This document shows, piece after piece, positions 22,785 through 26,792 of a stretch of DNA of 64,000 nucleotides. This DNA comes from Thermoanaerobaculia bacterium (GTDB lineage Bacteria > Acidobacteriota > Thermoanaerobaculia > UBA5066 > Gp7-AA6). Within the stretch, counting starts at the first letter, position 1. Each line of letters starts with the position of its first letter. A program made the translations under genes and the position numbers. The notes below the pieces were generated by a model. It searched no databases and had not been told where the DNA came from. It saw nothing but the letters and a program-made list of their open reading frames with translations. The stretch lies in NCBI GenBank assembly GCA_041483715.1, contig JBGPGG010000002.1, positions 7,703-71,702 on the forward strand, written 5' to 3'.

Positions 22785-22919
22785 CGGAGGAAGATACCCG
22801 ACGGCTCCAGCGAGCGAACTAGAAGAAGGGCAAGACCGACGCTCCGCGAGCGGGAGTTGGCCGTACCGGCCTAAACTGCTCCCGTCGTCTCAGCGCCCTC
22901 TTCAACAGCCGCCAGAGAC

Positions 22920-24311
22920 TCATGGCACGCCTCCCCGTTGCATGCGCTCGAGCTGTTCCCGAAGCTCGCGAAGCGCGCGTGGATCCGTCTTCTTGCGGCG
23001 GACTGACTCCCTCAAGAGAGCCATGGCCGCAATACCTTCTCTGACCAGATGTTCCCCATCGATCACCGGAAGGGCCGCAACGATCTCGGAAATGGCCTCG
23101 TTTTCGCGACCGGCGGCCATGAGTGTTTCCGCAAGGACGACACGTAGGTAGGCCGCATGAGAAGGAAATTCCCCGGCGGAATACACAACGACTGCTGCGC
23201 GGTACGAGTCAACGGCGCGATCAAGCTGCCCCTGATCTCTCAATAGCTCCCCTTCGACTGCGTGAAGATGAGCCACAGCGAGGGGCGTACCCGACTCCTT
23301 CAGCATCTGGATGGCCTTCAGTATGTTGCTATGGGCCGCCTCAAAGAGCCCTAAACGTCCTTCGAGCTCGGCAATTCCTGTGAAGACCATGCCTTGCAGC
23401 GATCTTTCGCCCTGGATAGCAGGATCACGGCTCAGAGCATCAAAAGCGACTCGCGCCTCCGCATCTCTTCCAATCTCCTTCAGAGTAATCGCCTCGAGCA
23501 GGCAGCACTTTGCAAACGACAGGCGCATTCCTAGTCGCGCGAACCTCTCCTTGAGCTCTGCCAGACTAGCAATGACTTCTTGATAGCAGCGCAACTCATG
23601 TAGGACTGCCAATCGCACGTAACCCGCTCGCGCCCGGAGTCTCTCAGCGCCCGCGATCCCGTCGCAGTTGTGCTCTAGGCGGTCCAGCCAAGCCTGAGAT
23701 TCGCGGTAGCGACCGCAATGCTTGTTTCCGACTGCGGCGATCCACGCAAGCTCGGCAAGACGAAGCTCAAACTCTTGACCCGGTTCGAAAACTTGCCGGT
23801 TCGTGTCCAGCCACCCGTAGACGAGGATCGCCTCCTCGACACTCTTGAGCGGAGACGTCTCGACCATGCTTCTTAGCCTCGCGCAGGCGGCAAGAAGCAC
23901 TGCCGGATCGCTGAGGAACCGCCGGTTTAGATCCTCCGATCGGGATCGCGCTGGGATCCCGAGGAAGCCTCGGACCATCTCGTGCCTCAGGGTCTGATCA
24001 ACCGCGATTCGCTCCCAGGTTTCGGCTTCGTCGAAGCTGCTCCAGCGATTCGCATGAAGCCATGCCAAGTACGACAACCGCGCCAGCAGGTCAGCTTGCT
24101 CGCCAACCCTGTCGTCGGGCCAGGACATCTGTTGAACGGACTGGTAGAAGAGCGCAATTGATCGAAGCCTGCCCTCGCAATGACCGTCTTCCCGAGCGAT
24201 GAGTCTGCACATTGCGTGCATCTCGTCGGCGCGATCCGGATCACACACCGCTTTCAGCTCGGCCATTTCGCCCACCTGGATTCGACGCCAGGCGATCTCG
24301 GCTCGCCTCAT
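22920..24311 (-). CDS. Large TPR-like repeat protein, island module 1 (possibly extends to an ATC start at 24404)
   Basis: 463 aa. The C-terminal half is clearly paralogous to 24890-26011, for example AAYLRVVLAETL...ALLRESVRRKKTDPRALRELREQL versus AAYLRVVLAEAL...AILRESVRQRKTDPRALLELREYL. Helical-repeat composition. Confidence 0.7.
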   Translation of the reverse strand: MRRAEIAWRRIQVGEMAELKAVCDPDRADEMHAMCRLIAREDGHCEGRLRSIALFYQSVQQMSWPDDRVGEQADLLARLSYLAWLHANRWSSFDEAETWERIAVDQTLRHEMVRGFLGIPARSRSEDLNRRFLSDPAVLLAACARLRSMVETSPLKSVEEAILVYGWLDTNRQVFEPGQEFELRLAELAWIAAVGNKHCGRYRESQAWLDRLEHNCDGIAGAERLRARAGYVRLAVLHELRCYQEVIASLAELKERFARLGMRLSFAKCCLLEAITLKEIGRDAEARVAFDALSRDPAIQGERSLQGMVFTGIAELEGRLGLFEAAHSNILKAIQMLKESGTPLAVAHLHAVEGELLRDQGQLDRAVDSYRAAVVVYSAGEFPSHAAYLRVVLAETLMAAGRENEAISEIVAALPVIDGEHLVREGIAAMALLRESVRRKKTDPRALRELREQLERMQRGGVP

Positions 24312-24416
24312 GGCCTCCTCGGTACCGAGTCCCGTCGGGATCTCTCGACCCCGGGTGGCTTCCAGCCAGCCAAGGATCGCCGCGGAATCAGGACCGGTGG
24401 TGATGGTCCACCTCCT

Positions 24417-24782
24417 CTAGCATTCGGAGGCCTCCCGATCATCGGGTCGGAGTTCCGTCCTGTCTGCTGCACCCCACCTGGCGGCCAGCTGCGCACGCCG
24501 GGCGGCCTTGCGCTGGTGGTTGATCGAAAGGAGGTCGACAACCTGGATCAACCAGGCCCTAGGGTTCCCGGCAGAATCGATCTTCACTATGGCGAGGAGG
24601 AATGCGTCCTGCACGATGTCCCGGGCATCCTCCTTGGAAAGACCATGCTTCCAAGTAGCCCGACGCACGAGAGGCAGAAAGGTCTGGCGGTAGAAGACAT
24701 CCAGATCCGCCTCCGCCATGGGCACTCGAGCGGTGCTCGCACCGGGCTGTCCAGGGGGCCTCTGTTTCGCCCGTGACGACAT
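24417..24782 (-). CDS. Small sigma-70 region-2-only protein (ECF-like sigma2 domain, no region 4), island module 1
   Basis: ATG 24782 is preceded by GGAGGA. ARDIVQDAFLLAI and NPRAWLIQVVDLLSINHQRK resemble ECF regions 2.1-2.4. The protein ends about 30 aa later with no HTH. Confidence 0.65.
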   Translation of the reverse strand: MSSRAKQRPPGQPGASTARVPMAEADLDVFYRQTFLPLVRRATWKHGLSKEDARDIVQDAFLLAIVKIDSAGNPRAWLIQVVDLLSINHQRKAARRAQLAARWGAADRTELRPDDREASEC

Positions 24783-24834
24783 CAAATCCTCCGGTTTGGG
24801 GTCACCGGGATCCCTTACTTACATATTGTCATGA

Positions 24835-24857
24835 GGGAGGGAGGGAGGGAGGGAGGG
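24835..24857. repeat. (GGGA)n tetranucleotide tract with six G3 runs (G-quadruplex-type motif on +, C-rich on -)
   Basis: GGGAGGGAGGGAGGGAGGGAGGG lies between the module 2 stop (24890) and the module 1 start (24782). Confidence 0.9.
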
Positions 24858-24889
24858 CCCAAGTCGACCACGATGGGGCCTCAGAGGGC

Positions 24890-26011
24890 CTAGTTCTTTG
24901 TCTGCAGGTACTCTCGGAGCTCGAGGAGGGCTCTCGGATCGGTCTTCCGCTGACGGACGGACTCGCGAAGAATTGCAACAGCCGCGAAGCTCTCCGGAAC
25001 CATCTTTTCCTGATCGATCGTCGGCAAAGCGGCGAGGATCTCCCATTCGGCCTCGCGCGGATTCCCTCCCTCAAGAAGAGCTTCTGCTAGCACGACGCGA
25101 AGATAGGCCGCACGCGCCTCCATACCCAGAGCCACGTAGTCGTTTACAGATTCTCTGAACGCCTGCACCGCGGCGCCCAGATGACCCGTGCGCTGCAGTG
25201 TTCCTCCGAGCATCAGCTTCAGGTCTGCCAGCGCAGAGAACCGGTTCGCGCTCTGAAGAAGCGGCGATGCCTGCCTGTATGCTACAAGAGCGCTGTCGAA
25301 GGAGCCCTGCTCCGATCGCAAGTTCCCGAGGTTTACCAGGGCCATTCCGCAAAGCGCCGGCTCGATCCGATACTCCTCTCCCGAAGCCAGCCGTTCGAAA
25401 CTAACAGCCGCCTCCTCGACCCTCCCAAGTTCCTTCAGGCTCATCGCTTCAAGGAATCGGCACTTCGCCAGATCGTTCTCCATCCCGAGCTTCTGAAACG
25501 TGAGAGCGACCGAAGGCACGAGTTCCAGGACTTCTTCGTGGCGCCTCATGTCATATCGGAGGGTCAGCCGAATGTACGAGACGCGGGCAAGATGCGCCGC
25601 GGGGGCTACGGTGTGCCGGAAACTCGCATCCGCCCTGTCCAGCCAGCGCTCGGTCTCGTCCCTCTTGCCAAGGAGGCGGAAACTGCCAGCCGCGAGGAGC
25701 GCGCTCTCTCCAAGGAAGTAATCCCGCTCGTCGAAAAAGAAGTCTCGGGCCCCCTTCGCGGAGAGCCACTTGTAGATGCGAGGCGACTCCTCTGCGACAT
25801 CCGACGGACTGGTATTGATGAGCTCCCAGAGCTCAGAACAGATGGACGTGAGGACGTCCCCGTCTGAATAAGCTTCGTTGACACACTGCTCGGAGCGGTC
25901 AGCCTCCGGAAGGTTGCGAAACGTCCTAGCCCGGGCCGACGCCTCCTCGCGCGAGCAGGACGCGACGCCGACCCTGGCGCGGAACGGAAGAACCTTGGCG
26001 ACTTCAGGCAT
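24890..26011 (-). CDS. TPR-like repeat protein, island module 2
   Basis: Start MPEVAKV at 26011 overlaps the upstream stop (ATGCCTGA). Paralog of 22920-24311. Confidence 0.7.
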   Translation of the reverse strand: MPEVAKVLPFRARVGVASCSREEASARARTFRNLPEADRSEQCVNEAYSDGDVLTSICSELWELINTSPSDVAEESPRIYKWLSAKGARDFFFDERDYFLGESALLAAGSFRLLGKRDETERWLDRADASFRHTVAPAAHLARVSYIRLTLRYDMRRHEEVLELVPSVALTFQKLGMENDLAKCRFLEAMSLKELGRVEEAAVSFERLASGEEYRIEPALCGMALVNLGNLRSEQGSFDSALVAYRQASPLLQSANRFSALADLKLMLGGTLQRTGHLGAAVQAFRESVNDYVALGMEARAAYLRVVLAEALLEGGNPREAEWEILAALPTIDQEKMVPESFAAVAILRESVRQRKTDPRALLELREYLQTKN

Positions 26012-26402
26012 CGGACCGCCGGAAGTCGTAGAGCTGGAGACTGCGTGAGAAGTCGTGAGCCACATCCACGGGCTCGCGATCGAGAAGAGACTTCAACTTC
26101 TCATCGGAAGCGCGAACGCCGGTTCCGACGACGTACTTCTGATACTCGCGGGCGAACTGGCAGCAAGCGACGAGCAGGTAAGGACGGTTTTCTCTGATCG
26201 AAGCGCCGGGGCGATAGCAGAAGCGGCGAAACCAGACGAAGAGATCTTTTTCGAGCTCGGTCGCCTCCTGCTCGGTCAACTGGTAGTGGGAAACCAAGGC
26301 GATGTGGATGAGGCCGAGGGTCTCTTGAAAGACCGACTGAACCTCCGTCTCGAATACGTTCTCCGCCGAGGGAGTCGCTTCGAATTCGTCCGAGATCTCC
26401 AT
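26004..26402 (-). CDS. Small degenerate sigma-70 region-2-like protein, island module 2
   Basis: AGGAGA lies 6 nt upstream of the ATG. ATELEKDLFVWFRRF and RPYLLVACCQFAREYQKY align with the sigma2-like motifs of 24417-24782. The similarity is weak and was aligned by eye. Confidence 0.55.
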   Translation of the reverse strand: MEISDEFEATPSAENVFETEVQSVFQETLGLIHIALVSHYQLTEQEATELEKDLFVWFRRFCYRPGASIRENRPYLLVACCQFAREYQKYVVGTGVRASDEKLKSLLDREPVDVAHDFSRSLQLYDFRRSDA

Positions 26403-26764
26403 ACCCAGTCTCCTGTCTTCGGGAGTAGGTGAAGACTATACCTTCCTGCGAAAAACACAATACCCCAAGTCGCAAACATGCAACTCAGGACAAAGGCTTT
26501 AATATCAGCTATTTAGTTGCGTTCTTATGAAGGAACGCCGCCGGTGAGATCATTCAAAACGAACCCCTTTTCGCCAAAAGCCCCTGGCCCAATGCCCGGG
26601 GCCAAAAAACCTAGTCCTGCGGCCACGGCGGCAATGCAAGAGCAGCCCGAATGGGCAGGCTTCGCCCCGTACGCCGACCGTGACTTCATAGATTCCCACC
26701 TACCAAGCGGGCCGACAGCGCGGCCCAAAAACGAATCAGGGATATTTCATCACAGGCTCAGGCC

Positions 26765-26792
26765 GAGGGTGTCAAGTATTTTTGACACCCTC
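26765..26792. promoter_or_regulatory. Perfect 11-bp inverted repeat GAGGGTGTCAA-N6-TTGACACCCTC (hairpin or operator)
   Basis: Read directly from the sequence. It lies in the 426-bp AT-richer spacer between the island and the dacB stop. A second short hairpin, CCGGGGG-CCT-CCCCCGG, follows at 26808-26824. Confidence 0.5.

Follow-up and report, generated by a model that had tools for sequence, protein, structure and literature searches.

Sigma factors are defined by region 2 together with region 4, and it is not evident why a bacterium should carry two genes for what appear to be region 2 proteins devoid of region 4, each followed directly by the gene for a large tetratricopeptide repeat (TPR) protein. 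Such an arrangement lies on the minus strand of a 64,000-nucleotide (nt) stretch of a Thermoanaerobaculia genome (Acidobacteriota; assembly GCA_041483715.1, contig JBGPGG010000002.1, positions 7,703 to 71,702 of the forward strand), the whole of which is referred to here as the window. The minus-strand genes are named S2, L2, S1, L1 and P in the order in which they are read, and NX denotes the N-terminal domain of L1. In an original prediction, the first four had been read as two small-plus-large pairs, and all four open reading frames (ORFs) indeed lie where it had placed them. Our analysis indicates that the pair consists of a small helical protein of apparent sigma-70 region 2 ancestry and a Rap-like TPR protein of the cytoplasm, the two being translationally coupled, and that the two pairs arose by ancient duplication of a widespread module. 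The genes form an operon with the order leader RNA, S2, L2, S1, L1 and micro-ORF P that is chromosomally fixed in Thermoanaerobaculia. The system is real, conserved and unannotated, the operon is probably an undescribed way of regulating transcription, and there is a reasonable chance that it represents a distinct class of RNA polymerase regulator.

The firmest point of departure is S1 (24417..24785, minus strand), which encodes 122 residues from a TTG codon or 121 residues from a better-placed ATG at 24782, the probable start. S1 matches Pfam Sigma70_r2 (PF04542) over residues 35-97 with 34.3 bits (gathering score 24), and it also matches many NCBIfam models of extracytoplasmic function (ECF) sigma factors over the region 2 span only, the best being SigJ and sigma70-ECF. 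When the S1-family profile is compared with the PDB, it finds the sigma2 domains of the ECF factors SigR (1h3l), SigJ (5xe7), SigH, SigW and CnrH. The DIVQDAF motif of region 2.2 and the AWLxQVVDxLxxNxxRK motif of regions 2.3/2.4 are kept, and the core of the family is strongly conserved (FLPLVRRATW.HGLSKEDARDIVQDAFVLA...NPKAWLIQVVDHL..N..RK..RR..L...W). Region 4 (PF04545 or PF08281) was found in neither S1 nor S2 with Pfam and NCBIfam, even at E-values up to 10. The homologs of S1 fall into 458 clusters, and the 120 listed are 96-133 residues long (about 120), have PF04542 as their sole domain and retain the conserved core as well as a tail motif, RRxxLxxxW. Because this region-2-only form of about 120 residues is common to the 120 homologs listed of the 458, S1 is not a truncation. 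Nor is there room for a lost region 4, since L1 starts 12 nt past the S1 stop codon. A region 4 hidden by a frameshift after S1 is likewise excluded, as the spacer codes for the beginning of L1 and holds nothing but short ORFs in its remaining frames. A fusion of S1 and L1 by stop-codon read-through was considered and rejected: the two genes have their frame in common in the window, but not in two other loci (L001/L004; loci carry three-digit numbers). Thus, S1 is a genuine ECF-type sigma region 2 domain without region 4, and this is a conserved state, as the original prediction had supposed when it described a region-2-like protein that ends before region 4.

The origin of S2 (26004..26402, minus strand; 132 residues) is harder to trace. 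S2 has no match in Pfam or NCBIfam, and BLASTP yields no alignment between S1 and S2 (best E 10). The earlier claim that the two small proteins visibly align is thus not borne out, the weak signal that exists being seen by profile-profile comparison only. With three different S2 alignments, hhalign relates the S2 family to the S1 family at 45.7-49% probability (E about 2e-4), in an alignment of up to 75 columns that takes in the three sigma2 helices and has the register expected of them, whereas control profiles (the reversed S1 family, the NX domain and the L N-terminus) reach 0.1-0.6% in the same comparison. The AlphaFold2 (AF2) model of S2 has five helices, with a mean predicted local distance difference test score (pLDDT) of 82.6, and Foldseek returned nothing significant for it in the PDB or BFVD. 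Among the non-significant PDB matches, the first is region 2 of E. coli sigmaE on -10 DNA (4lup_C; template modelling (TM) score 0.50 on the target), two further ECF sigmas are in the top seven, and four phage sigma factors are among the top 33 BFVD matches, all below threshold. Sequence comparison of S2 with solved structures gave only noise. The DxVQxxF core-binding signature that S1 keeps is lost in S2. Taken together, S2 is likely, though not proven, to be of sigma2 ancestry, with much divergence since, and this becomes more likely because each of the two paralogous L genes follows a small gene.

Whatever its ancestry, S2 belongs to a large family. Its homologs fall into 645 clusters, of which the 120 listed are about 132 residues long and unannotated, and an exhaustive profile search gave 93 S2-family representatives (50% clustering), mostly stand-alone proteins of 115-140 residues; a Pfam scan of 45 diverse members matched no family consistently. 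In close orthologs, H33, H39, C62 and C81 (or C80/C81) are invariant. A metal or redox site particular to this lineage is conceivable. Such a site was rejected as a feature of the family, since only C81 is conserved across its wider membership.

The partners of the small proteins are paralogs of each other. L2 (24890..26011, minus strand; 373 residues) and L1 align by BLASTP over 360 residues with 38% identity (E 2e-62). The paralogy had been predicted, though for the C-terminal halves alone, and in fact nearly the full length of L2 takes part. TPR_2 and TPR_8 score above their Pfam gathering thresholds in L2, in agreement with the TPR-like composition noted before. Several hundred L2 homologs, of about 373 residues and annotated merely as TPR proteins, occur in metagenome-assembled genomes (MAGs) of Thermoanaerobaculia and Acidobacteriota. 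The AF2 model of L2 (pLDDT 89.9, predicted TM score 0.86) is an all-alpha TPR solenoid, with low confidence at residues 1-20, and its best full-length Foldseek match is peptide-bound RapF-PhrF (4i9c_A; E 1.3e-5, TM score 0.62 on the query, 384 columns), followed by RapJ, RapI, RapH, a phage Rap and NprR. The predicted structure of L2 thus most resembles the Rap/RRNPP peptide receptors, at 12-16% sequence identity to these structural matches. The L proteins are soluble and have no transmembrane segment. Each is preceded closely by its small partner: the S2 stop and the L2 start overlap in ATGCCTGA (8 nt), an indication of the translational coupling that had been proposed for this pair, and the 12 nt from the S1 stop to the L1 start contain a strong Shine-Dalgarno sequence.

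L1 (22920..24404, minus strand) consists of the L2 paralog and an extra N-terminal domain, NX, of about 90 residues, and its start deserves comment. The first ATG gives the gene that was originally described (22920-24311, 463 residues or more). However, the stretch between the S1 stop and this ATG codes in the L1 frame for the first NX helix, and it opens at a non-canonical ATC (24402-24404) 12 nt past the S1 stop, with AGGAGG as the Shine-Dalgarno sequence in front (the junction reads TAG-AGGAGG-TGGACC-ATC). In 11 genomes (the window and loci L004, L005, L007-L010, L014, L017, L018 and L021), the L1 start codon is ATG in four, ATT in four, ATC in two (the window and one other) and CTG in one, and each ortholog start sits 5-8 nt past a Shine-Dalgarno sequence. 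From the homologous position of the start and the Shine-Dalgarno sequence, L1 is therefore 494 residues long (24404-22920); the gene itself stands as predicted, and only its start is corrected. Because the start is non-ATG in 7 of the 11 genomes, gene callers shorten L1 by 30-90 residues. It is possible that this weak start keeps L1 sub-stoichiometric to S1.

Do the two parts belong together beyond this locus? Soil metagenomes contain remote S2-like genes, about 30-45% identical to S2. Of their contigs, 13 continue past the S2-like gene and are informative, and in all 13 the next gene, which overlaps the S2-like one, is L-like and matches the full L profile. The window therefore contains two tandem copies of a widespread pair. 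A survey of homolog neighbourhoods, suggested as a check on the original prediction, thus finds the pair itself conserved. It finds no conserved non-transcriptional partner, because the genes beside the remote pairs are not those that flank the Thermoanaerobaculia cluster. In three of the remote loci (L026, L035 and L037), a large secreted protein, guessed to be an M16-type peptidase from its LPNGLKVIVV N-terminus alone, is encoded divergently upstream of the pair.

About 19 S2-family representatives differ from the stand-alone form in being 220-285 residues long, with the S2-like domain at the C-terminus and an NX-like domain N-terminal to it. Trimmed to domains, the N-terminal part of these fusions aligns with NX of L1 at 97.6% hhalign probability (E 4e-12); before domain trimming, the full alignment of NX + S2-like fusions against the full L alignment had given 36%. 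Compared with the PDB through the fusion profile A6, NX found only designed helical repeats, which are spurious matches. The fusions serve as a Rosetta stone that ties L parts to S parts, and they are the best indirect evidence that these parts interact. Two metagenomic singletons (P0372 and P0395) join an S2-like domain to a LuxR/GerE helix-turn-helix (HTH), P0372 with a receiver domain in addition; if real, they would be sigma-like two-domain architectures on an S2 fold. They are given little weight here because they may be gene-call chimeras.

The duplicated form of the module was traced in two ways. The neighbourhoods of L2 homologs and a search through species-representative genomes yielded 22 loci, each from Thermoanaerobaculia or unclassified Acidobacteriota, and the same gene cluster occupies the same chromosomal slot in about 20 species-level Thermoanaerobaculia genomes. 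One flank is formed by a DinG-like helicase and a PBP4-type peptidase of family S13, then come S2, L2, S1 and L1 where contigs are long enough, and the other flank holds a UPF0227 hydrolase, a 252-residue membrane protein and a 152-residue protein. Orthologs are 78-88% identical to the window protein for S2 (closer genomes), 56-80% for L2, 55-70% for S1 and 25-35% for L1, and therefore S2 is the most constrained protein of the cluster and L1 the fastest evolving. One MAG (L024, 4366-8920) apparently has an extra S2-L2 copy (S2, L2, S2', a frameshifted L2' and S1), and the module can therefore duplicate again.

The cluster stands out by its composition. Its GC content in the window is 0.61, against 0.68-0.69 in the flanks, and at third codon positions 0.65-0.75 against 0.88-0.89. 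The original prediction had accordingly spoken of a duplicated module in a compositional island and had listed a mobile or defence-associated element among its possibilities. The low GC content is real, but it is found in all eight orthologous loci measured (0.57-0.60 versus about 0.70), about 10 points below the flanks despite deep divergence, and because it is kept in these loci, it is a stable property of the genes and not the mark of a recent transfer. The fixed slot in about 20 genomes and the low GC kept in eight loci both speak against a mobile or defence-associated module. A defence or phage origin was rejected on this fixed genomic context and on searches of the cluster for defence and phage families, in which PADLOC and PHROGs gave zero matches; no tRNA adjoins the cluster. 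From these comparisons of sequence and synteny, the duplication is ancient and chromosomal, and the cluster is not mobile.

How might such a module work? The order of a sigma gene followed by a coupled partner gene is the classic sigma/anti-sigma layout. The ECF sigma/anti-sigma operons, some of which encode cytoplasmic anti-sigma factors, resemble the present one in that a small sigma-type gene precedes a coupled partner gene, here for a protein with a helical N-terminal part and a TPR interaction domain as sensor, and in that S1 has an ECF-type region 2. They differ in that the present module is without region 4, its L proteins are soluble and show no class I/ZAS domain, and the sigma signature is gone from the sequence of S2. 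Pfam and NCBIfam sequence profiles revealed no class I anti-sigma N-terminal domain (such as zf-HC2 or RskA) in L1 or L2. Since region 4 is absent, the module is not an ECF family member in the strict sense, and since the anti-sigma domain was not detected, it does not qualify as a class I anti-sigma pair either. TPR-bearing anti-sigma factors are known, for example Myxococcus DdvA (PMC11506125).

The Rap-Phr/RRNPP systems of Firmicutes and phages offer a second comparison. Here the likeness lies in a receptor of about 370 residues with an N-terminal helical bundle and a TPR superhelix, an architecture that is found in the L2 model, in a tiny ORF overlapping the receptor stop (at L1) and in a receptor that targets a small regulatory protein (a role proposed here for S). 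By contrast, it is a sigma2-like protein and not a response regulator that would be targeted here, and no peptide gene lies 3' of L2. Pfam and NCBIfam do not place L in the Rap, NprR or PlcR families, and since it has neither sequence membership nor an exported peptide, the module is not an RRNPP cassette.

Other precedents concern the sigma domain itself. Bacillus SigO-RsoA is a two-subunit sigma factor and thus, as here, has its sigma domains on separate polypeptides, including a small protein with a region-2-like function. The partner in our case is a TPR protein of 373-494 residues, though, and both the taxon (Acidobacteriota) and the sequence family differ. No region-4-bearing subunit adjoins S1 or S2 (S2, L2, S1, L1, P, the PBP4-type peptidase, the helicase and the UPF0227 hydrolase are without HTH), and for this reason the module is not SigO-RsoA-like. 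T4 gp55 is a region-2-like late sigma without region 4 that works with gp33/gp45, and the sigma-like domain of PhyR is a non-transcribing sigma mimic. Both are precedents for a sigma2-type domain without region 4, a likeness by description, their accessory proteins and regulation being unrelated. TPR domains are known regulatory parts of ECF systems, as in ECF42, where the sigma domain depends on, or is regulated by, a C-terminal TPR extension (PMC8999054). The best profile matches of S1 belong to SigJ, which is of the neighbouring ECF41 type. ECF42, however, is a single polypeptide with sigma2, sigma4 and TPR, whereas here sigma4 is missing and the TPR protein is separate and larger; similarity of L to the ECF42 extension did not turn up, though no comparison was aimed at it. 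Each of these systems has a feature in common with the module: sigma/anti-sigma operons the order and coupling of the genes, SigO-RsoA and T4 gp55 the notion of divided sigma domains, and Rap-Phr the fold of the receptor and a micro-ORF overlapping its gene. As the original prediction had it, the module matches no described system: neither PADLOC nor PHROGs gave a match, Pfam and NCBIfam identified only generic Sigma70_r2 and TPR families, and in a full-text literature search neither pairs of a sigma2-only and a TPR protein nor the sigma factors of Thermoanaerobaculia were found described.

The comparison with Rap-Phr draws attention to P (22819..22923, minus strand), a micro-ORF of 34 residues whose ATG overlaps the L1 stop (ATGA). 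Of 13 orthologous loci, 11-12 have kept P together with its ATGA or GTGA overlap, at a length of 34-39 residues (a count that takes in two loci read through apparent frameshifts, and in which L009 has an unclear start and only a clear C-terminal motif). It has no Pfam match. Its ends are conserved, with a basic amphipathic N-terminus and a C-terminus that reads [VIT]LP[FP][FLM][FI]-stop, and its proline/arginine-rich middle is variable. A related motif stands at the N-terminus of the L core, MPExA[KR][VI]LxF[RP] (A[KR][VI]LPF[RP]), in a segment that is disordered in the L2 model; the motif is conserved even in the remote pairs, in the form GR[VIL][LI]xFP. The C-terminus of P and the N-terminus of L thus have [RKS][IV]LPF in common.

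An appealing scenario is that of a sigma/anti-sigma-like module in which TPR receptors control RNA polymerase-binding proteins that are devoid of sigma4, a mechanism that we favour tentatively, at rather less than an even chance. Each L would be the receptor or anti-sigma-like keeper of its own S, which it would bind and hold. A short peptide of the [RK][IV]LPF type in the TPR groove would shift the L-S interaction, and it could be supplied by the disordered N-termini of the L cores and by the C-terminus of P, both of which would modulate the complexes. Freed S1 would dock on the beta-prime clamp helices of RNA polymerase via its intact region 2.2 and, lacking region 4, would act either as a competitor of complete sigma factors or as a minimal specificity subunit that is -10-only or partner-dependent. 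S2, with its canonical sigma residues lost and the strongest constraint, would be a derived member with a similar task, performed on a conserved target. The leader 5' of S2 and the weak AUC/AUU codon at which L1 starts would tune expression. The gene anatomy and the sigma-then-partner order with coupling count for the sigma/anti-sigma-like part of this scenario, and the overlap of P with the L1 stop, as in phr with rap, together with its LPF end counts for the receptor-peptide part. In its most specific form, the proposal would be a new regulator class, in which a clamp-docking 'mini-sigma' is gated by Rap-like TPR receptors that read an intracellular peptide from a micro-protein and the receptor N-termini, with a leader RNA and a non-AUG start setting expression; we regard this full version as less likely than not.

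If the scenario holds, the polymerase-docking half of a sigma factor would be a free-standing regulator or a minimal specificity subunit, and the logic of a Rap/RRNPP-style TPR receptor and a small peptide would extend outside Firmicutes and to an intracellular setting. The region-2-only family would then be a large one that is under purifying selection and always found beside a dedicated TPR partner. Acidobacteriota are abundant in soil and genetically poorly studied, and the module, which is small (five genes), is widespread in soil metagenomes, where it goes unannotated.

Several observations weigh against the sigma/anti-sigma-like scenario, however. The sigma2 ancestry of S2 is statistically insecure, with Pfam empty and Foldseek E-values of at least 0.47 (BFVD) and at least 1.7 (PDB). 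Neither a sigma4-bearing partner nor a target promoter has been identified. The TPR fold matches are generic, as LGN, subunits of the APC and designed TPRs score nearly like Rap, and L has no recognised anti-sigma domain, Pfam and NCBIfam sequence searches having given only TPR-type families. The [IV]LPF likeness is that of a short motif and could be due to chance. P has no signal peptide, its N-terminus being basic and amphipathic without a hydrophobic signal sequence, and because of this it is not an exported pheromone of the Phr type. Finally, the remote single pairs have no P-like ORF, and none follows L2 either.

Of the possibilities raised in the original prediction, a decoy, a two-subunit sigma system and an RNA polymerase-targeting regulator are all still viable candidates. 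Could S1 be one half of a two-subunit sigma factor? In this case S1, and perhaps S2, would supply region 2, a distantly encoded region-4 or HTH protein would read the -35 element, on the model of Bacillus SigO-RsoA, or an activator would replace region 4, on the model of gp33/gp45 with T4 gp55, and L would serve as assembly factor or co-activator and not as an inhibitor. S1 does keep the sigma2 motifs for core binding and -10 recognition, a conserved promoter-like motif lies 5' of S1, and the fusions P0372 and P0395 join an S2-like domain to a LuxR/GerE HTH, a relative of sigma4. Split ECFs are acknowledged to be under-explored (PMC7826278). However, neither the conserved cluster nor its syntenic flanks contain a region-4 or HTH gene, whereas the SigO and RsoA genes adjoin each other, and the two HTH fusions are the possibly chimeric singletons mentioned above. 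We therefore consider a split sigma factor unlikely.

Another scenario, to which we assign a similarly low probability, is sigma mimicry with partner switching. It is conceivable that the S proteins are decoys that do not bind RNA polymerase at all and instead bind an anti-sigma-type protein, L or another, thereby controlling the availability of a complete ECF sigma encoded elsewhere, the two pairs forming a switching cascade. The PhyR-NepR-EcfG system is a precedent, and the retention of the sigma2 fold with loss of region 4, and in S2 of the canonical sigma residues, would fit such a role; two paralogous pairs with a common short motif could allow cross-talk. Yet a pure decoy would not need the region 2.2 signature DIVQDAF that is conserved in S1, no full-length ECF sigma is linked to the cluster, and L is without a recognisable anti-sigma domain.

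It is improbable, and rather more so, that the module has left transcription altogether, a sigma2-derived bundle having been exapted as an adaptor so that S and L would form a TPR scaffold or chaperone pair, for example in the cell envelope or in proteostasis. S2-family members without a detectable Pfam sigma signature, the functional promiscuity of TPR folds, the D-Ala-D-Ala carboxypeptidase (PBP4-type) adjoining the cluster and the secreted, supposedly M16-type protein upstream of three remote pairs are compatible with this idea, but S1 is an unambiguous and well-conserved ECF sigma2 domain, and the envelope-related neighbours do not recur between the Thermoanaerobaculia cluster and the remote pairs. 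That S1 is a decayed or truncated ECF sigma pseudogene in an acquired island, as its missing region 4 and the GC content below that of the flanks might suggest, is refuted by the conservation data and has next to no probability, given the length of about 120 residues, conserved core and RRxxLxxxW tail in the 120 homologs listed of the 458, the synteny in about 20 genomes, the same GC depression in all eight orthologous loci measured, an L1 start that leaves no room for region 4 and the negative PADLOC and PHROGs searches.

Returning to the sigma/anti-sigma-like scenario, the expression signals of the operon are themselves conserved. The 430-nt region 5' of S2 has 71% mean nucleotide identity among 8 orthologs, with long invariant blocks. 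It harbours a conserved non-coding element (26551..26792, minus strand) in which an A-tract, a TTGACA block and a TGTGATnnAAT block form a promoter-like part that is followed by about 170 nt of RNA-like sequence. This stretch contains one covarying hairpin and ends in a terminator-like hairpin and a U-run, and RNAalifold predicts two mutually exclusive pairings, both of which engage the 5' arm of the terminator-like hairpin, as is typical of attenuators. The element could be an attenuator-type or riboswitch-like leader or, just as possibly, a separate small RNA. Using nhmmer, we found it 5' of S2 in the Thermoanaerobaculia loci that include this region (orthologous positions in L004-L025), among them the distant L012 and L017; it matches no family in Rfam. 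Downstream of it lies a second terminator-like hairpin with a T-run (26461..26492, minus strand), recognised from a terminator scan and the upstream alignment, and after this hairpin, about 60 nt before the S2 start, come conserved TTGTGTTTT and TAnAGTCT blocks that are a possible proximal promoter for S2.

The second pair appears to have a signal of its own. In the spacer between L2 and S1, a motif at 24815..24834 (minus strand), TC(A/G)(T/C)GACAATAT(G/T)TA..T.. (GACAATATGTA..T.., about 17 nt), is near-invariant in 8 orthologous spacers whose surrounding sequence cannot be aligned. It sits about 35-50 nt 5' of the S1 start, where it could serve S1-L1-P as an internal promoter or operator. Directly 5' of this motif, the window has a perfect (GAGG)6 microsatellite (24833-24857 on the plus strand, hence (CCTC)n on the coding strand). 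It is missing from the seven aligned orthologous spacers, and its length could vary by slippage.

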